From a phage, in sequence record PZ179882.1: DNA of 64,000 nucleotides; one strand, 5' to 3'. Made by a program: the position numbers and the translations under genes. The notes below the pieces were generated by a model, which saw only the letters and a list, made by a program, of their open reading frames with translations, was not told the DNA's origin and did no database searches. Shown one piece after another: positions 1,865 to 50,024 of the stretch. The stretch's first letter is position 1. Each line of letters starts with the position of its first letter.

Positions 1865-3844
1865 ATGACTTTATTATCTCCGGGCATTGAGCTCAAAGAA
1901 ACTACGGTTCAAAGCACCGTGGTTAATAACTCTACTGGTACAGCAGCTTTGGCCGGTAAATTCCAGTGGGGTCCTGCTTTTCAGATCAAACAGGTTACAA
2001 ATGAAGTAGATTTAGTTAATACTTTTGGTCAACCTACAGCTGAAACTGCAGATTATTTTATGTCTGCAATGAATTTCTTACAATATGGAAATGATTTGCG
2101 AGTTGTGCGCGCTGTCGATAGAGATACCGCTAAAAACTCATCTCCGATTGCTGGTAATATTGAATACACTATTTCTACCCCAGGTAGTAACTACGCGGTT
2201 GGAGATAAAATCACAGTTAAGTATGTTTCAGAAGATGTTGAAACAGAGGGTAAAATTACCGAAGTAGATGCTGATGGAAAAATTAAGAAAATTAATATTC
2301 CTACCGCAAAAATTATCGCTAAAGCGAAAGAAGTCGGTGAATATCCAGAACTAGGTTCTAACTGGACCGCGGAAATTTCTTCGTCTTCATCTGGCTTAGC
2401 TGCAGTAATAACTCTCGGAAAAATTATTACTGATTCCGGTATTTTATTAGCTGAAATTGAAAATGCTGAAGCTGCTATGACAGCGGTTGACTTTCAAGCA
2501 AATCTCGAAAAATATGGAATTCCAGGAGTAGTAGCTCTTTATCCAGGCGAGTTGGGCGATAAAATCGAAATCGAAATCGTATCTAAAGCTGACTACGCAA
2601 AAGGTGCTTCTGCATTACTACCAATTTATCCAGGTGGCGGAACACGCGCATCTACTGCCAAAGCAGTGTTTGGATATGGACCACAAACTGATTCACAATA
2701 CGCTATTATAGTTCGTCGCAATGATGCTATTGTTCAAAGCGTTGTTCTTTCAACGAAGCGTGGTGAAAAAGATATTTACGATAGTAACATTTATATTGAT
2801 GACTTTTTCGCAAAAGGTGGTTCAGAATATATTTTCGCAACTGCACAAAACTGGCCAGAAGGCTTCTCTGGAATTTTAACTCTGTCTGGTGGATTATCGT
2901 CAAATGCTGAAGTAACAGCAGGAGATTTGATGGAAGCTTGGGACTTCTTTGCTGACCGTGAATCTGTTGACGTTCAGTTGTTTATTGCTGGTTCTTGTGC
3001 CGGTGAATCTTTAGAAACAGCATCTACTGTCCAAAAACACGTCGTTTCAATTGGGGATGCTCGCCAAGATTGCTTAGTATTGTGCTCACCGCCGCGCGAA
3101 ACTGTAGTTGGAATTCCTGTAACTCGTGCTGTTGATAACTTAGTCAATTGGAGAACTGCAACAGGTTCATACACTGATAATAACTTTAATATCAGTTCAA
3201 CCTACGCAGCAATTGATGGTAACTATAAGTATCAGTATGACAAATATAATGATGTGAATCGTTGGGTTCCATTAGCAGCTGATATTGCGGGTTTATGCGC
3301 AAGAACTGATAACGTATCTCAGACTTGGATGTCTCCAGCTGGTTATAATCGTGGCCAAATTTTGAACGTTATTAAACTTGCTATTGAAACTCGCCAGGCT
3401 CAGCGCGACCGTTTATACCAAGAAGCTATCAACCCGGTAACCGGTACAGGTGGTGATGGTTACGTATTGTATGGTGATAAAACAGCTACTTCTGTTCCTT
3501 CTCCATTTGATCGTATTAACGTTCGTCGTCTGTTTAATATGTTGAAAACGAATATCGGACGTAGTTCAAAATATCGTTTGTTCGAATTAAACAACGCGTT
3601 TACTCGTTCATCATTCCGCACAGAAACTGCCCAATACTTGCAGGGAATTAAAGCTCTCGGTGGAATTTATGAATATCGTGTAGTTTGCGATACAACAAAT
3701 AATACTCCGTCAGTAATTGATAGAAATGAGTTTGTTGCAACATTCTACATCCAACCGGCTCGTAGTATAAATTATATCCAACTTAATTTCGTCGCAACTG
3801 CTACTGGTGCAGATTTCGATGAGTTAACTGGTCTTGCAGGTTAA
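1865..3844 (+). CDS. 18: Tail sheath protein
   Basis: 659-aa ORF; N-terminus MTLLSPGIELKETTVQ matches T4 gp18 as recalled; same length as T4 gp18. Confidence 0.95.
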   Translation: MTLLSPGIELKETTVQSTVVNNSTGTAALAGKFQWGPAFQIKQVTNEVDLVNTFGQPTAETADYFMSAMNFLQYGNDLRVVRAVDRDTAKNSSPIAGNIEYTISTPGSNYAVGDKITVKYVSEDVETEGKITEVDADGKIKKINIPTAKIIAKAKEVGEYPELGSNWTAEISSSSSGLAAVITLGKIITDSGILLAEIENAEAAMTAVDFQANLEKYGIPGVVALYPGELGDKIEIEIVSKADYAKGASALLPIYPGGGTRASTAKAVFGYGPQTDSQYAIIVRRNDAIVQSVVLSTKRGEKDIYDSNIYIDDFFAKGGSEYIFATAQNWPEGFSGILTLSGGLSSNAEVTAGDLMEAWDFFADRESVDVQLFIAGSCAGESLETASTVQKHVVSIGDARQDCLVLCSPPRETVVGIPVTRAVDNLVNWRTATGSYTDNNFNISSTYAAIDGNYKYQYDKYNDVNRWVPLAADIAGLCARTDNVSQTWMSPAGYNRGQILNVIKLAIETRQAQRDRLYQEAINPVTGTGGDGYVLYGDKTATSVPSPFDRINVRRLFNMLKTNIGRSSKYRLFELNNAFTRSSFRTETAQYLQGIKALGGIYEYRVVCDTTNNTPSVIDRNEFVATFYIQPARSINYIQLNFVATATGADFDELTGLAG

Positions 3845-3931
3845 TTGATTGTGGGGCTTCGGCCCCTATTCTCGAGGAAACAAGTGATTATTTCTAAGTT
3901 TGTTACAATAAAACCAAGAAATCATTCAAAA

Positions 3932-4489
3932 ATGTGGTCGACAATTCTGGGATATAAAGTATCATATCATGATACAATATCTGTTCCAATAGAATTAATG
4001 CCAAAGAATAGTAATAAAATAGTTGACGCTAAATGTGATTTGTGTGGTATTAAATTTAGTAGAAGCATTCAGCTTTTAAATAGAACACCCACACATGCAT
4101 GTAGAAAATGTAGCATTAAACAAGTTGCTATTAAAAATTCGGAAGTTCAATCTGGAATAAGCAGACCATGGCAAAGAGGCGATAAACATCCTCGATGGAC
4201 TGGTAAAAGAAAAGAGTTTGCATTATATGCTAGTAGAGTTCATTCTATAACTAAGTCAGCTAAAATAAGAAAAATTTGGTCAAAATGGCCGAATGCTGAT
4301 AAAATAGGAGTGTGCGGTGTAGAAGGTGCTTATCAACTCGATCATAAAGTATCTATCAAATATGGATTTGATAATTTAATTCCGCCGGAAATTATAGCAA
4401 GCGTAAAAAATTTAGAAATAATCACTTGGGAATCTAACCGAGAAAAGTCAAAAAGAAATAGCGTAGATCTTTGGGATTTACTAGAATGA
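3932..4489 (+). CDS. Putative HNH-family endonuclease (freestanding, inserted between genes 18 and 19)
   Basis: ORF track gives 3845..4489 with a TTG start directly after the gene 18 stop; first ATG at 3932. CxxC...CxxC pair followed by C-terminal LDHKVSIKYGFDN...NLEIITWESN (H-N-N type motif). Start codon uncertain. Confidence 0.5.
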   Translation: MWSTILGYKVSYHDTISVPIELMPKNSNKIVDAKCDLCGIKFSRSIQLLNRTPTHACRKCSIKQVAIKNSEVQSGISRPWQRGDKHPRWTGKRKEFALYASRVHSITKSAKIRKIWSKWPNADKIGVCGVEGAYQLDHKVSIKYGFDNLIPPEIIASVKNLEIITWESNREKSKRNSVDLWDLLE

Positions 4490-14879: not shown

Positions 14880-15560
14880 TTATTTTAATGTTACGAAAGA
14901 AGAATTGCGTGTTTCACGAATTAGAACTGATCCGTCACGATTAATGTAGTAAATTAAGCTAAATAAAGTTTGGTGTGCCGACGCGTGTTCAAAACTAGTT
15001 GGGTGAGATTTCCAATCCGGAGTTTCAGCGATCCATTGATAAATCCACCAAGGAACCGTGCAAAATCCTGGATTTTTTCCAATCAGCTGAAGATTCGGAC
15101 TAAAGTTTTCCGGAAGAGTAAATACAGACGGCTTTTCAGATTCAATAATCTCAGCTACAGCCTGTTCGAATTTTTCTTCAACAAAAGGAGTATCTTCAAT
15201 CAAAACATTGGTATTTTCAGGAATTTTATCCGTTTCTACTACTTCAATTTTAATGTCAGATTTAACCGGAGAATCAATCAGAAGTGCTGCTTCTGGATTG
15301 ACTTCTTCATCGTCATATTTTAACCCCTCTGCAGCATCAGCAGCATTGATTAAGTCTTTAATAGATAACCCATCAGTCTCTGGCATAGGTTCACTAGCGA
15401 GCTTCTGGAGGGCTTCTTCAATATCAATAACGATATTATCAAAAGATTTATTCTTTTTGACCTTTATACCAAACTGTTCAGCATATTCAGCTAATTTAGC
15501 CTTAGCTTCTTTATTATCATCAAGAGCCTTCAGCTCTGCAATATAATCTTTATCTATCAT
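14880..15560 (-). CDS. inh: Putative prohead protease inhibitor Inh
   Basis: 226-aa ORF directly upstream of hoc; T4 inh position. Confidence 0.7.
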   Translation of the reverse strand: MIDKDYIAELKALDDNKEAKAKLAEYAEQFGIKVKKNKSFDNIVIDIEEALQKLASEPMPETDGLSIKDLINAADAAEGLKYDDEEVNPEAALLIDSPVKSDIKIEVVETDKIPENTNVLIEDTPFVEEKFEQAVAEIIESEKPSVFTLPENFSPNLQLIGKNPGFCTVPWWIYQWIAETPDWKSHPTSFEHASAHQTLFSLIYYINRDGSVLIRETRNSSFVTLK

Positions 15561-15573
15561 AATATTTCCTCAG

Positions 15574-15581
15574 TATAAATA
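15574..15581 (+). promoter_or_regulatory. Late promoter TATAAATA upstream of the GIY-YIG endonuclease gene
   Basis: Exact TATAAATA 29 nt upstream of ATG 15610. Confidence 0.5.
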
Positions 15582-15609
15582 TAGATATATTTATTACTCG
15601 GAAAATAGT

Positions 15610-16227
15610 ATGTACCACTTTGTATATGAAACAACAAATCTAATAAATGGTAAAAAGTATATAGGAAAACACTCTACTGATGACTTGAATGATGGCTACC
15701 TTGGTTCCGGTAAGGCAATTCAGCAGGCTATAAAGAAATATGGTGAAAAGAATTTCTCTAGAACAATACTAAAAGAGTTTAAAACTTCCGAAGAAGCGTA
15801 CATGTATGAAGAAGAAATTATAACTCCTGAACTAATAAAAAGCAAAAATTATTATAATATGAAACCTGGTGGAATTGGTGGAATTGTTATGACTGCAGAG
15901 GTTATAGCAAAGATGAAAGAATCTTCCGCTAAGAGATTTGAAAACTCACCGGGCACGGTATTAGGTACAACTTGTTACACTAATGGAACTAAAAATATTT
16001 TTATTAAACCTGGAGAACTTGTTCCAGAAGGATTTGTAAAAGGGATGGTTCATCTTAATAGAAAGTCCAGAAAAGGATGTAAAGTCAAACCGACTACCAC
16101 AGGAACTTTTTGGGTCAATAATGGAGCAATAAATAAATTAATACAACCAGACGGTATTATTCCTGACGGATTTATTAAAGGTCGTCTCATGAAAAGAGAC
16201 TCTAAAGGCAAATTTAGTAAGGCATAA
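15610..16227 (+). CDS. GIY-YIG homing endonuclease (Seg family, T4 segD/segE-like locus between inh and uvsW)
   Basis: 205-aa ORF; GIY-YIG core FVYETTNLINGKKYIGKHS; basic C-terminal DNA-binding region. Confidence 0.85.
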   Translation: MYHFVYETTNLINGKKYIGKHSTDDLNDGYLGSGKAIQQAIKKYGEKNFSRTILKEFKTSEEAYMYEEEIITPELIKSKNYYNMKPGGIGGIVMTAEVIAKMKESSAKRFENSPGTVLGTTCYTNGTKNIFIKPGELVPEGFVKGMVHLNRKSRKGCKVKPTTTGTFWVNNGAINKLIQPDGIIPDGFIKGRLMKRDSKGKFSKA

Positions 16228-16229
16228 TT

Positions 16230-17738
16230 ATGGATATTAAAGTACATTTTCACGACTTCAGTCATGTACGCATCGATTGTGAAGAGAGCACGTTCCACGA
16301 ATTAAGAGATTTCTTTTCGTTTGAGGCCGATGGATATAGGTTTAATCCTCGCTTCAGATATGGCAACTGGGATGGACGAATCCGTCTTTTAGATTATAAT
16401 CGCCTTCTTCCATTCGGCTTAGTCGGGCAAATTAAAAAGTTCTGTGATAATTTTGGCTATAAAGCCTGGATTGACCCACAAATTAACGAAAAAGAAGAAT
16501 TATCAAGAAAAGATTTTGATGAATGGCTTTCTAAATTAGAAATCTATTCAGGAAATAAAAGAATTGAACCACACTGGTATCAAAAAGATGCAGTGTTCGA
16601 AGGATTAGTTAATCGTCGTAGAATTCTTAATCTTCCAACATCCGCAGGTAAATCTTTAATTCAAGCTTTGCTTGCACGTTATTATTTGGAAAATTATGAA
16701 GGTAAAATTCTTATCATTGTTCCAACAACTGCTCTGACAACTCAGATGGCTGATGACTTTGTTGACTATCGTTTATTCAGTCATGCAATGATAAAGAAAA
16801 TCGGCGGCGGAGCATCAAAAGATGATAAATATAAAAATGATGCACCGGTAATTGTTGGTACATGGCAAACTGTAGTAAAACAACCAAAAGAATGGTTTTC
16901 ACAATTTGGAATGATGATGAATGATGAATGCCATCTTGCTACAGGAAAAAGTATTTCATCTATCATATCAGGTTTAAATAACTGCATGTTCAAATTTGGT
17001 CTATCGGGTTCATTACGTGATGGCAAAGCTAATATCATGCAGTATGTTGGAATGTTTGGTGAAATATTTAAGCCAGTAACGACTTCTAAATTGATGGAAG
17101 ATGGACAAGTAACTGAGCTAAAAATTAATAGTATTTTTCTTCGCTATCCCGATGAGTTCACTACTAAATTAAAGGGAAAAACTTACCAAGAAGAAATAAA
17201 AATTATTACTGGACTCAGTAAAAGAAATAAATGGATCGCTAAATTAGCTATTAAGCTTGCACAAAAAGATGAAAACGCTTTTGTCATGTTTAAACACGTA
17301 TCGCACGGTAAAGCTATTTTCGATTTAATTAAAAATGAATACGATAAAGTTTATTACGTATCAGGGGAAGTTGATACCGAAACCCGCAACGTAATGAAAA
17401 CCTTAGCTGAAAACGGTAAAGGAATAATTATAGTAGCTAGTTATGGTGTATTTTCTACTGGTATTTCAGTTAAAAATCTGCATCACGTTGTTTTAGCGCA
17501 CGGTGTTAAATCTAAAATTATTGTATTGCAAACAATAGGTCGCGTATTACGTAAGCATGGTTCTAAAACAATCGCAACGGTCTGGGACCTCATAGATGAC
17601 GCGGGCGTAGTTTCTAAATCAAAAACATCTTCCAAAAAATACTCGCATTTAAACTATCTTTTAAAACATGGACTTGATCGTATTCAGCGTTATGCTGATG
17701 AGAAGTTTAATTATGTGATGAAAGAGGTTAAACTTTGA
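16230..17738 (+). CDS. uvsW: UvsW SF2 DNA/RNA helicase
   Basis: 502-aa ORF; Walker A PTSAGKS, DExH-like NDECH; matches T4 UvsW as recalled. Confidence 0.95.
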   Translation: MDIKVHFHDFSHVRIDCEESTFHELRDFFSFEADGYRFNPRFRYGNWDGRIRLLDYNRLLPFGLVGQIKKFCDNFGYKAWIDPQINEKEELSRKDFDEWLSKLEIYSGNKRIEPHWYQKDAVFEGLVNRRRILNLPTSAGKSLIQALLARYYLENYEGKILIIVPTTALTTQMADDFVDYRLFSHAMIKKIGGGASKDDKYKNDAPVIVGTWQTVVKQPKEWFSQFGMMMNDECHLATGKSISSIISGLNNCMFKFGLSGSLRDGKANIMQYVGMFGEIFKPVTTSKLMEDGQVTELKINSIFLRYPDEFTTKLKGKTYQEEIKIITGLSKRNKWIAKLAIKLAQKDENAFVMFKHVSHGKAIFDLIKNEYDKVYYVSGEVDTETRNVMKTLAENGKGIIIVASYGVFSTGISVKNLHHVVLAHGVKSKIIVLQTIGRVLRKHGSKTIATVWDLIDDAGVVSKSKTSSKKYSHLNYLLKHGLDRIQRYADEKFNYVMKEVKL

Positions 17739-18427
17739 ATTATAAATTAATATACGATAATTTAATTAATAGAGCCCAGAATCGGGCTCGCCTTAATGGA
17801 TACACTGAAACTCATCATATAATTCCTAGATGTATGGGCGGTACAGATGATAAGTGTAATTTGGTAGAACTAACAGCTGAAGAGCATTTTATAGCTCATA
17901 AACTTTTAGCTAAAATTCATCCAAACCATTACGGTATAATTAAAGCCGTTATATGTATGGGGATGAATTCAAAGACTCATGAAAGACACGTTAATAAATC
18001 TTACGCCTGGGAACGTCGTAAAATGGCAGAACTTCAATCAGGTGAAGGTAATCCATTTTACGGAAAACACCATACGGAAGAACATAAACAATATATGTCA
18101 AAACTCATGAAAAATCGTCCAATTACGTGGGGAAGTAAAATTAGTAAAACTAAAAGAATGAACCCAACAAAATGGACTGAAGAAGCTAAAAGATTGCATT
18201 CTATCAATCAATCAGGTAAAAATAATGGCATGTATGGAAGGAAACATTCCGCTAAATCTATTCAGAAAATTAAAGATAACATGCCAGATAATTCAGGAGC
18301 TAATAACCCAGCTGCTAAACCTATAGAAGTAAATGGTGTTAAGTATAAATGCATGAAAGATGCTTCTAAAGCTACTGGATTATCAATGTACAAACTAAGA
18401 ATACTTAGAAAAACAGTTAATTTATAA
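17735..18427 (+). CDS. HNH homing endonuclease with NUMOD3-like repeats
   Basis: 230-aa ORF; HNH_3-type motif ETHHIIPRCMGG...NLVELTAEEHFIAH; repeats GNPFYGKHHTEEHK and GKNNGMYGRKHSAKS; TTG start overlapping the uvsW stop (TTGA) with GAGG RBS at 17724. Confidence 0.8.
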   Translation: MNYKLIYDNLINRAQNRARLNGYTETHHIIPRCMGGTDDKCNLVELTAEEHFIAHKLLAKIHPNHYGIIKAVICMGMNSKTHERHVNKSYAWERRKMAELQSGEGNPFYGKHHTEEHKQYMSKLMKNRPITWGSKISKTKRMNPTKWTEEAKRLHSINQSGKNNGMYGRKHSAKSIQKIKDNMPDNSGANNPAAKPIEVNGVKYKCMKDASKATGLSMYKLRILRKTVNL

Positions 18428-18440
18428 GGGCTTCGGCCCT

Positions 18441-18683
18441 TTGGAGAAAAAGATGTTACTAGAATTTAAACAATTTCTTTATGAAGCTTCTATTGATGAA
18501 TTTATGGGTAAAATTGCCTCTTGTCAAACAATAGAAGGTCTAGAAGAACTTGAAGCTTATTATAAGAAAAGAGTTAAAGAAACTGAATTAAAAGATACTG
18601 ATGACATCTCTGTGAGAGATGCTTTGGCAGGAAAAAGAGCTGAATTAGAAGATTCAGACGATGAAGTAGAAGAAAGCTTTTAA
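18441..18683 (+). CDS. uvsW.1: UvsW.1-like small acidic protein
   Basis: 80-aa ORF following the uvsW locus; T4 uvsW.1 position. Confidence 0.7.
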   Translation: MEKKMLLEFKQFLYEASIDEFMGKIASCQTIEGLEELEAYYKKRVKETELKDTDDISVRDALAGKRAELEDSDDEVEESF

Positions 18684-18738
18684 ATTAAAAAAGGCCCAAC
18701 CAAAAAGGAAGGGCCAAAACTATAGACTAAAGGTCACA

Positions 18739-18906
18739 CTATAGCAAAAGTTGTGTTTCATTTAATTGTTCTTCAGAACTTTCTGAAACTGGTAGTTCTT
18801 TAATGTAATTATAACAAGGCCCAGGATGTACAGGACCTTTGTCTGTTTCAACAACCAATGCAGAATCGATTGGAGTTTTACAGACAACACAAATCTTATC
18901 TGACAT
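18739..18906 (-). CDS. Small Cys-containing protein (T4 uvsY.-2 position)
   Basis: 55-codon minus-strand ORF not in the ORF track (MSDKICVVCKTPIDS...); GAGGAGA RBS; TATAAATA on minus strand at about 18931-18940. Confidence 0.5.
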   Translation of the reverse strand: MSDKICVVCKTPIDSALVVETDKGPVHPGPCYNYIKELPVSESSEEQLNETQLLL

Positions 18907-18934
18907 GATTGTCTCCTCTAAATTATATATCTAT

Positions 18935-19159
18935 TTATATAACTCTCATATGCATATCAATGCCCATATCTTTAGAATAAAAATATTCATCAAGATATCC
19001 GGCAAATTTTCCTTTAATATAAAGTACATCTTCACCGCATGGGTGGTCAGCCAGGATACGAATATCCTGACGCTTGAGATTATACTTTTTCATTAAGAAT
19101 TGAATTTCCGTTTCGAATTCTTCTTCATAATTAAAAGCATCATCAATGCTATATTTCAT
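18935..19159 (-). CDS. Hypothetical protein (T4 uvsY.-1 position)
   Basis: 74-aa ORF abutting the uvsY stop. Confidence 0.6.
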   Translation of the reverse strand: MKYSIDDAFNYEEEFETEIQFLMKKYNLKRQDIRILADHPCGEDVLYIKGKFAGYLDEYFYSKDMGIDMHMRVI

Positions 19160-19572
19160 TATTTTCCAGCCTCAAATGCTCGCATGTCTTGAATATGCTT
19201 AATAGCAAATCCACGTGATTTAATAGCATCAAGAGCTCCGCTACAGAAATCCAATAAAATTCCCCAATATTGTAATGAAGTATCAACTTTTAAAACATCC
19301 TTATCAGCTGATAGAACTGTCTTCATTTCTGATTTCTCGTAACGATCCATACTAAATTCATCACCATCTCCTCGTCCCGAGTAGTAGTCTAATTTAGCTT
19401 TAATAGCAACTTTTTTCTGTGCTTCAATTCTAAGCATTTCCTTTTTAATACTTGAATGCTTATTAAGCCATTTACTATATAACATCACATTATTAGCTGC
19501 TTCATACTGTAATTTAGTCGAATCTATAAACACATCTTTCTTCAATTCTTCTTGAAGATCTTCTAATCTCAT
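19159..19572 (-). CDS. uvsY: Recombination mediator protein UvsY
   Basis: 137-aa ORF; matches T4 UvsY as recalled. Confidence 0.9.
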   Translation of the reverse strand: MRLEDLQEELKKDVFIDSTKLQYEAANNVMLYSKWLNKHSSIKKEMLRIEAQKKVAIKAKLDYYSGRGDGDEFSMDRYEKSEMKTVLSADKDVLKVDTSLQYWGILLDFCSGALDAIKSRGFAIKHIQDMRAFEAGK

Positions 19573-49008: not shown

Positions 49009-50024
49009 CATTATGTTCAGATAAGGTCGTTAATCTTATCCCGGAATTATATCCAGCTGCATGTCACCATGCAGAGCAGACTATATCTCCAACTTGTTAA
49101 AGCAAGTTGTCTATCGTTTCGAGTCACTTGACCCTACTCCCTAAAGGGATAGTCGTTAGGCATTTATGTAGAACCAATTCCACTTATCAGATTTTACACG
49201 GTAAGTAACTAATCCGGATGAAATTTCAAAATGTCTAGCTGCATCAGCTGCACATTCAAAAATAACCCCATCACATGAAATCTTTTTAATATTACTAGGC
49301 TTTTTACCTTTCATCTTTTCTGATATTTTAGATTTAGTTTTGTCTGAATGCTTATGATTAAAGAATGAATTATTTTCACCTGAACGATTTCTGCATTTAC
49401 TACAAGTATAAGCAGAAGTTTGTATACGAACACCACATTCACAAAACTTATGGGTTTCTGGATTCCAACGCCCATTTTTGCTTCCGGGTTTACCGTAAAG
49501 AGCTTTCCGACCATCAAGGCCAAGCTTAAGCATCTTAGCTTTAACAGTTTCAGAGCGTTTCTTAATAATTTCTTCTTTTAATGGATGTACAGAATATGTA
49601 TCACCAAACGTTGCATCAGCAATATTGTATCCATTAATTTTAGAATTAAGCTCTTTAATCCAAAAATTTTCTCGTTCAATAATCAAATCTTTCTCATATG
49701 GAATTTCTTCCAAAATAGAGCATTCAAACACATTACCATGTTTGTTAAAAGACCTTTGAAGTTTTATAGAAGAATGGCATCCTTTTTCTAAATCTTTAAA
49801 ATGCCTCTTCCATCTCTTTTCAAAATCTTTAGCACTTCCTACATATACTTTATCGTTTAAAGTATTTTTAATCTGATAAATTCCACTTTTCATAAATACC
49901 TCTTTAAATATAAAGGTATTTATTAAAGGGTAGTCCTACAATTTAGCACGGGATTGTCTACTAGAGAGGTTCCCCGTTTAGATAGATTACAAGTATAAGT
50001 CACCTTATACTCAGGCCTCAATTA
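49009..50024 (-). mobile_element. Group I self-splicing intron in td (1016 nt) carrying I-TevI
   Basis: Exon 1 ends ...TTGGGT; intron begins TAATTGAGGCCTGAG... and ends ...ATG; inferred length equals the 1016-nt T4 td intron. Confidence 0.8.
49156..49893 (-). CDS. I-TevI: GIY-YIG intron homing endonuclease I-TevI
   Basis: 245-aa ORF within the td intron; GIY-YIG N-terminus MKSGIYQIKNTLNDKVYVGSA; zinc finger and C-terminal DNA-binding region. Confidence 0.92.
   Translation of the reverse strand: MKSGIYQIKNTLNDKVYVGSAKDFEKRWKRHFKDLEKGCHSSIKLQRSFNKHGNVFECSILEEIPYEKDLIIERENFWIKELNSKINGYNIADATFGDTYSVHPLKEEIIKKRSETVKAKMLKLGLDGRKALYGKPGSKNGRWNPETHKFCECGVRIQTSAYTCSKCRNRSGENNSFFNHKHSDKTKSKISEKMKGKKPSNIKKISCDGVIFECAADAARHFEISSGLVTYRVKSDKWNWFYINA

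Follow-up and report, generated by a model that had tools for sequence, protein, structure and literature searches.

What is the open reading frame (ORF) of 230 codons that separates uvsW from uvsW.1 in the phage record PZ179882.1, and how is it accommodated between these genes? The stretch of DNA analyzed here, called the window below, is 64,000 nucleotides (nt) long, and its gene order at this place is T4-like: inh (−), segE, uvsW, the 230-codon ORF, uvsW.1, and then uvsY.-2, uvsY.-1, and uvsY (−). We conclude with good confidence that the ORF is a free-standing homing endonuclease gene of the T4 Mob family, with a MobE-like HNH nuclease domain, and that it sits as a promoter-less cassette at the very end of uvsW, within its last five codons. 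The system belongs to a known kind, and the element is already present, with an annotation, in phage T6 and numerous further genomes. With it, the uvsW 3' end joins the T-even catalogue as one more locus of Mob-type homing endonucleases, one that the classic phage T6 also has.

The ORF encodes 230 amino acids (aa) and occupies 17735–18427 on the + strand. It starts with TTG (17735–17737), which overlaps the TGA stop codon of uvsW (17736–17738) in the tetranucleotide TTGA, and a GAGG Shine-Dalgarno sequence is located 7 nt ahead of it (17724–17727). Both the frame and the ribosome binding site had been read in this way in the original prediction, which was made from the sequence without database searches. 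An in-frame TAA is located two codons upstream (17729–17731); therefore, the TTG is the earliest possible start. The next ATG encodes Met34 and falls past the His-His pair of the nuclease motif, so that TTG is indeed the only in-frame start that keeps this motif.

The N-terminal part of the translation contains the motif HHIIPRCMGG...NLVELTAEEHFIAH, which belongs to a predicted HNH (beta-beta-alpha-metal) catalytic motif (residues 24–55, TETHHIIPRCMGGTDDKCNLVELTAEEHFIAH; 17804–17899, +). H27-H28, N42, H51, and H55 are present, and H28, N42, H51, and H55 are invariant in a family alignment of 62 sequences. The motif had been assigned to the HNH_3 type. The motif itself is there, but the HNH_3 label did not stand: a Pfam profile search of the endonuclease gave no HNH_3 match, and the match to Pfam HNH (PF01844) was below the cut-off (16.8 bits, E 0.008, versus 21.4 bits). 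Local matches of the motif to those of group II intron maturases and Cas8-HNH proteins (E 0.37–0.85) are weak alone. The protein matched PHROG 655 'homing endonuclease' (E 1.6e-61) and PHROG 12434 'HNH endonuclease' (E 5.6e-10), and its residues 1–106 are 52% identical to T4 MobE (E 5e-33). In an AlphaFold (AF2) model built from 62 homologs (mean pLDDT 85.8), a strand-strand-helix unit is predicted at residues 24–61, followed by a series of short helices and then by a C-terminal strand-strand-helix-helix unit.

The NUMOD3-like repeats of the original prediction were recovered by Pfam above the threshold in two stretches (PF07460, E 7.7e-14, 51.8 bits versus a cut-off of 20.4), and they are also visible as an internal DNA repeat of the gene (18034–18065 and 18208–18239). 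The first repeat comprises residues 94–122 (18014–18100, +), and the core of the second is NQSGKNNGMYGR (18208–18239, +). A predicted C-terminal DNA-binding (helix-turn-helix) module resembling that of I-TevI is located at residues 193–218 (18311–18388, +). Residues 111–222 align at 31% identity with the DNA-binding half of the I-TevI encoded in the window (tblastn, E 2.6e-8), and the C-terminal half matched PDB entry 1I3J in phmmer (E 0.006) and in Foldseek (probability 1.00, E 0.05, TM-score on the target 0.45). The Pfam profile of the I-TevI DNA-binding domain (PF20987) is sub-threshold alone (14.7 versus 27 bits). By these matches, the protein combines a catalytic domain of the MobE HNH type with a DNA-binding module of the I-TevI type, made up of NUMOD3 and helix-turn-helix units. 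The intact I-TevI of the window (245 aa; td region, 49156–49893, −) is the nearest paralog of the C-terminal half within this stretch.

Alignment to T4 defines the inserted DNA as a segment of 689 nt (17724–18412, +). AAA stands at both of its ends, which leaves an uncertainty of 3 nt in the boundary. The insert falls within the last five codons of uvsW. The ORF had been placed exactly at the junction of uvsW and uvsW.1; it does not lie strictly between the two, since the insert starts 15 nt ahead of the uvsW end. In T4, uvsW ends with ...GTA ATG AAA ACA GTT AAT TTA TAA, which is followed by a hairpin, and the C-terminus of the UvsW structure (PDB 2OCA) reads ...YVMKTVNL. In the window, uvsW ends with ...GTG ATG AAA GAG GTT AAA CTT TGA (KEVKL and stop). 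The 5' end of the insert is a substitute uvsW tail, GAG GTT AAA CTT TGA (E V K L and stop; 17724–17738, +), and its Glu and Val codons form the GAGG of the endonuclease gene. The native T4-type tail, AAA ACA GTT AAT TTA TAA (K T V N L and stop), is found at 18410–18427 (+), where it supplies the endonuclease gene with its five final codons and its stop codon (...CTT AGA AAA ACA GTT AAT TTA TAA, RKTVNL and stop). Next come T4's hairpin and uvsW.1 start region, that is, the native hairpin GGGCTTCGGCCC and then the GGAG Shine-Dalgarno sequence of uvsW.1 (18428–18439, +); this hairpin is also present in genomes without the endonuclease gene.

Among close relatives, the gene is present or absent at one fixed site. 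A megablast search of 50,697 phage records with 17000–19000 as the query matched 759 records, nearly all from Tequatrovirus, and 49 of these contain the whole segment at the same place. A protein search at ≥95% identity also gave 49 records. The carriers include phage T6 (AP018814, MH550421), PST, HY03, ACG-C40, G8, G28, and UFV-AREG1. T4 does not have the gene; its uvsW runs directly into the uvsW.1 sequence in the alignment, and both the contiguity of the two genes in T4 and the absence of the endonuclease there agree with the original prediction. The gene was found in 6 of ~33 Gaprivervirus-like records and in 13 of ~144 Jiaodavirus-like records, and T4, VR7, and JD18 represent the empty sites. 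Klebsiella phage R3_1 was rejected as an empty Jiaodavirus site because it is a Marfavirus, and JD18 was taken instead. An IMG/VR scan with the endonuclease protein detected only two close copies, both from isolates (ZN18 and G8), and no population sample.

The novelty implied by the original prediction was overstated, because T6 and 48 other records carry the gene and it is annotated in many genomes. The annotations differ among the carriers: 'homing endonuclease' is usual, and 'mobD', 'putative mobile endonuclease E', 'group I intron endonuclease', and 'NUMOD3 motif protein' also occur. A literature search found no publication describing the gene. The review of T4 mobile elements lists 15 endonuclease genes, none of them at the uvsW/uvsW.1 site (PMC2988022), and the genome paper of UFV-AREG1 names two 'UvsW' coding sequences (CDS), 184 and 186, passing over the intervening CDS 185. 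The present comparison shows that the database labels 'mobD', 'group I intron endonuclease', and 'uvsW-A/uvsW-B' are misleading. An Rfam search gave no intron or other RNA family in 15500–19500 at E ≤1; therefore, the gene is regarded as free-standing and not as borne by a group I intron. Together with the identity to MobE, the PHROG 655 match, and the presence/absence polymorphism, this supports the original assignment as a free-standing homing endonuclease.

Orthologs with 55–70% identity were found in seven other T4-like lineages, and each contig that was traced has the gene at the uvsW/uvsW.1 junction with a 4-nt NTGA overlap. The uvsW tail is re-used as the end of the endonuclease in at least three lineages besides the window, namely Escherichia virus TH40 (Gaprivervirus-like), Escherichia phage PSD2002, and the Klebsiella Jiaodavirus pzk-kv6-1. 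In the carrier TH40, a 22-nt direct repeat of the uvsW tail (95% identical, copies 692 nt apart) brackets the insert, and UvsW and the endonuclease share the C-terminus IKQVEI, followed by stop. VR7, the empty Gaprivervirus site, has a single copy of the repeat. The AGGTGG within the repeat is used by uvsW.1 in the empty VR7 site, and in the occupied TH40 site it is shared by the endonuclease gene and uvsW.1. In the Jiaodavirus pair, the endonuclease gene of pzk-kv6-1 ends with AAC CTA TGA, compared with AAT CTA TGA in uvsW of the empty JD18, and this end restores the native ATGA overlap with uvsW.1. No sign of tail re-use was seen in Morganella phage Rgz1 or in three metagenomic contigs (L101, L102, and L103).

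The carriers also share a diverged uvsW 3' end. The window is 93–100% identical to T4 (mostly ≥96%) through segE and uvsW up to the last ~220 nt, and the last three blocks of the comparison (17495–17723) show 92%, 69%, and 83% identity. The block linked to the endonuclease was delimited as 17603–17723 (+). BLAST of 17560–17738 gave a bimodal distribution, with 49 records at ≥95% identity, 4 at ~91%, 12 at 80–90%, and 885 below 80%. The number at ≥95% is the same as that of the gene carriers, and all nine carriers that were fetched have the block. In a single-nucleotide polymorphism matrix of 15 genomes (9 carriers and 6 non-carriers), nine third-codon-position (synonymous) substitutions between 17651 and 17717 are fixed in 9/9 carriers and occur in 0/6 non-carriers. 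The adjoining 17610–17645 encodes a variable-loop variant, VVSKSKTSS, which outside the carriers is found only in the recombinants LH2 and OES_C. These four non-carriers (LH2 and OES_C-1/2/3) have only this distal part (locus ~2560–2680 in LH2 and OES_C-2) and are T4-type from 17651 on. They are recombinants and not deletion derivatives. Their alleles could be resistant or still sensitive, and they would be useful for target mapping.

The 5' limit of the carrier-type sequence varies (~17513 in the window and ~17567 in T6), as it would look if co-conversion tracts had been left behind. The right flank has no carrier-specific sites in the genomes compared and is uninformative because it is nearly invariant among all of these phages. 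The flank pattern is repeated in Jiaodavirus, where the last 100 nt of uvsW are 76% identical, compared with 98–100% upstream and 99–100% on the right side. A search for a donor of 17560–17738 found no sequence above 74% identity among the eight endonuclease-bearing lineages, T4, and Mosigvirus. We infer that a foreign uvsW 3' end came into Tequatrovirus along with the endonuclease gene, with the right junction inside the uvsW tail of the recipient, and that the element later spread among Tequatroviruses by homologous repair.

How might the cassette be expressed? An exact match to the T4 late-promoter consensus, TATAAATA, is located upstream of segE (15574–15581, +), and it is the sole exact + strand match between 10529 and 20688. 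The scan, which covered exact TATAAATA only, gave 17 matches in the window versus 8.7 expected and 0 inside uvsW or the endonuclease gene. A scan for sigma-70 promoters and terminators gave nothing above chance. A segE-uvsW-endonuclease-uvsW.1 transcript from the late promoter at 15574 is likely, judging from this layout, which matches the 'promoter-less cassette' class of T4 endonuclease genes (PMC2988022). Two near-matches (7 of 8 positions) were noticed by eye inside the ORF, TATAAATT (17741–17748) and TATAAATG (18345–18352), and may be due to chance; TATAAATG is ~100 nt 5' of uvsW.1 and does not occur in the Klebsiella ortholog. Coupled translation at a low level is suggested by the TTGA overlap, the weak TTG codon, and the GAGG embedded in the uvsW tail; the weak translation assumed in the original prediction is plausible. 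When the RNA around the start was folded, no significant structure appeared over the Shine-Dalgarno sequence or the TTG (z −0.9 to −1.9); a sequestering hairpin in the style of I-TevI or Aeh1-mobE is therefore unsupported here.

A GC-rich hairpin, GAGCCC-AGAATC-GGGCTC, is located slightly further inside the gene, at codons 13–19 (17772–17789, +). No other 30-nt fold in the gene is as stable, and a hairpin likewise ranks first in all eight orthologous lineages (nt ~24–67, codons ~12–19) and in T4 mobE (L104, 21991–22416, −). Conservation was judged by the ranking of folds within each gene and by shuffling: the hairpin beats 30/30 shuffles in each gene, and the stems are offset by a few nt between lineages. 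The stems differ in sequence between the genes, and the encoded peptide is variable there. The hairpin was not seen in more distant family members, which were taken from the IMG/VR scan. Its position coincides with that of a weak intrinsic hairpin or terminator published for the 5' end of mobE (PMC2988022); the window copy has no U-run and is terminator-like on the minus strand only. Attenuation, RNA processing, and ribosome pausing are candidate roles.

From these features, a mechanism can be proposed. Transcription would probably come from the late promoter ahead of segE. The cassette brings the replacement tail EVKL with its stop codon at the 5' end, together with the GAGG ribosome binding site inside it, so that UvsW stays full length. 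A low level of the endonuclease would be synthesized, probably by ribosomes that terminate on uvsW (translational coupling), because the TTG overlaps the uvsW stop codon. The endonuclease frame exits into the recipient's old uvsW tail and stop codon, leaving the native hairpin and the uvsW.1 initiation region intact. In a mixed infection, the enzyme is predicted to nick or cut gene-less uvsW alleles near the uvsW 3' end, by analogy with MobE, an active HNH enzyme that nicks its target, and with MobA, which also nicks (PMC2988022). Such a target, already proposed in the original prediction, would fit both the strict site specificity in eight lineages and the linked diverged block. Recombinational repair from the carrier genome would copy in the gene and the adjoining uvsW 3' block, and the carrier would be protected by the synonymous substitutions of the block, by the insertion itself, or by both. 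A resistant version of the cleavage site may lie in the block; alternatively, the block may just be tightly linked. The candidate region for target and immunity comprises 17651–17738 in the window and the T4 sequence ...TACGTAATGAAAACAGTTAATTTATAA.

The closest known system is T4 MobE, which lies between nrdA and nrdB. The N-terminal HNH domains are 52% identical, the GC hairpin is at the same 5' coding position, and both genes are polymorphic for presence and absence among T-even phages. Both are free-standing, promoter-less cassettes whose start overlaps the stop codon of an upstream essential-pathway gene. Promoter-less endonuclease cassettes are described in T4, and for mobE, whose AUG overlaps the nrdA stop codon, coupled low-level translation has been proposed (PMC2988022). 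However, the locus here is uvsW/uvsW.1 and the target is presumably different, the start codon is TTG and not AUG, and no U-run is found behind the hairpin. MobE has 141 aa without the NUMOD3 repeats or the I-TevI-like C-terminal domain seen here, and in contrast to mobE, the ORF terminates in a tail that was captured from the host gene. The I-TevI endonuclease of the td intron shares the organization of the DNA-binding half, a NUMOD3 minor-groove helix plus a C-terminal helix-turn-helix, which would imply that the target is long and bipartite and that catalysis takes place away from the bound site. Its catalytic domain is GIY-YIG and not HNH, and the gene studied here is not intron-encoded.

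A third comparison is with T4 MobA and the gene 60 bypass cassette, reportedly described by Bonocora et al. in 2011. In this system, a Mob endonuclease moves together with an adjoining sequence that remodels the end of the neighboring gene, as in the window. The co-moving sequence of that cassette probably guards the carrier genome from cleavage. Here, in contrast, the co-moving parts are a replacement tail of five codons and a synonymous-diverged uvsW 3' block of ~120 nt; there is no translational bypass element, and uvsW is not split.

These features allow a more ambitious proposal, which we make tentatively and would not favor on the present comparison: that the insertion architecture is an adaptive, lineage-wide 'seamless docking' module consisting of the tail swap, the recoded ~120-nt immunity block, and the hairpin attenuator. 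The last ~5–7 codons of uvsW may have been duplicated or replaced with an embedded Shine-Dalgarno sequence, the old tail ending the ORF; since the endonuclease terminates there, uvsW.1 would regain its native context. If this proposal is true, comparative sequence could reveal what a Mob-family endonuclease targets, what confers immunity to it, and what throttles its expression.

Several points weigh against the interpretation as an active homing endonuclease. In the literature searched, neither biochemical nor genetic tests of its cleavage activity or homing were found. Its prevalence is low (~6% of the matching Tequatrovirus records), and the copy in BF15 (locus 2676–3263) has a 4-nt deletion (~18205–18208 in the window) that causes a frameshift and truncates the ORF; the element may therefore spread poorly or decay in some lineages. 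As no sequestering RNA structure is seen, low expression would have to follow from the TTG and the coupling layout. The flank of the Gaprivervirus carrier shows no divergence, which means that the diverged block is not universally needed. Moreover, the association of block and gene could be plain physical linkage, because diverged DNA suppresses recombination.

The low prevalence (49/759 records) and the BF15 frameshift, as well as a G35D substitution in the nuclease motif of the ZN18 copy, would be expected if the gene were a decaying or domesticated remnant that no longer cuts and is kept since its deletion would harm the uvsW tail or uvsW.1 expression. Its seamless fit into the expression of these two genes would favor such retention, and T4-type phages do keep a defective endonuclease gene, T4's own I-TevIII (PMC2988022). 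However, eight intact Tequatrovirus copies have 24 synonymous-only versus 6 nonsynonymous polymorphic codons, the catalytic residues of the window copy are intact and invariant family-wide, and full-length orthologs are kept in eight lineages. A remnant is therefore unlikely. The polymorphism is that of purifying selection with, on this sequence evidence, occasional decay, as is usual for homing endonuclease genes.

Two free-standing endonuclease genes that are unrelated to each other bracket uvsW, with segE on its 5' side and the HNH gene on its 3' side. segE (15610–16227, +) encodes a GIY-YIG homing endonuclease (PF19835 SegE_GIY-YIG, E 5.5e-9) and has the position of T4 segE at the inh/uvsW junction. 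SegE thus resembles the HNH enzyme in being a free-standing endonuclease next to uvsW, and it is listed as targeting uvsW (PMC2988022), but it belongs to another nuclease family and lies at the opposite end of the gene. Inheritance of the two genes is independent: in F26 and BF15 the HNH gene occurs without segE, and T4 and RB59 show the reverse. The position of uvsW between two independent selfish nucleases may help explain nearby mosaic boundaries and local marker exclusion. It could also indicate an active endonuclease that mainly benefits the phage, by excluding the markers of co-infecting relatives or by modulating uvsW/uvsW.1 expression and recombination. The bracketing of uvsW by two nucleases, the co-inheritance of the gene with a diverged uvsW 3' allele, and recent papers that reportedly give phage homing endonucleases host-beneficial roles (PMC13096335, PMC10055350) are consistent with this. 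However, nothing in the sequence separates a phage benefit from ordinary homing, the gene is infrequent in three genera, which speaks against a strong general advantage, and the idea overlaps with the homing interpretation instead of excluding it. As the main explanation of the gene, it has a small probability.

TTG is a weak start codon, and translation from an internal ATG (Met34 or later) would yield a product without the nuclease motif; alternatively, the ORF could be untranslated. The orthologs make both very improbable. The homologous codon is TTG in Tequatrovirus (window and T6), PSD2002, and TH40, GTG in L102, and ATG in pzk-kv6-1, Rgz1, L101, and L103. The N-termini of the orthologs align from this overlap codon as MNY[KQE].IY..LI, with the first ~10 residues conserved, and this alignment is the best evidence for TTG as the true start. 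All three TTG lineages (3/3) have a strong Shine-Dalgarno sequence, GAGG or AGGTGG, 5–7 nt upstream; no recognizable one was found in the ATG and GTG lineages, a small sample (n = 8 lineages in all). The synonymous bias of the polymorphism runs through codons 7–50, and the independent annotators of T6, PST, G28, HY03, and F26 all used the TTG, in agreement with the start originally chosen. The ATG, GTG, and TTG coupled starts form a natural series for how selfish genes throttle their own expression.

An endonuclease encoded by a group I intron that splits one uvsW into two exons, as implied by the annotations of G8, G28, and PST ('group I intron endonuclease', 'uvsW-A/uvsW-B') and by a weak match to TIGR01453 grpIintron_endo (30 bits versus a cut-off of 56) that reflects the shared NUMOD3/I-TevI-type DNA-binding region, is refuted for practical purposes by the lack of intron RNA, by the stop codon of uvsW and the separate Shine-Dalgarno sequence and ATG of uvsW.1, and by the separation of these two genes in every genome examined without the endonuclease, the T4 fusion being a sequencing error.

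uvsW (16230–17738, +; PF21241 UvsW_N, E 8e-44) encodes a helicase of 502 aa with the C-terminus ...MKEVKL, and 502/502 residues were aligned with PDB 2OCA. uvsW.1 (18453–18683, +; PF11637, E 6.5e-30) encodes 76 aa. The T4 RefSeq record (NC_000866) still annotates a fused uvsW of 587 aa that includes uvsW.1. This fusion results from +1/−2 nt differences at the GGGCTTCGGCCC hairpin (locus 4160–4200, compared with 18410–18440 in the window) from all other phages examined, and it is regarded as a sequencing error in the literature. In the same region, the T4 RefSeq has DSAG, where PDB 2OCA and all relatives show DDAG. Further downstream, HY03 and F26 have an additional segment of ~98 nt between uvsY.-2 and uvsY.-1 (locus ~3850–3970), and in LH2 the uvsY.-1 region is replaced and shortened (locus ~3160–3300), which makes this another small variable place close to the endonuclease site.

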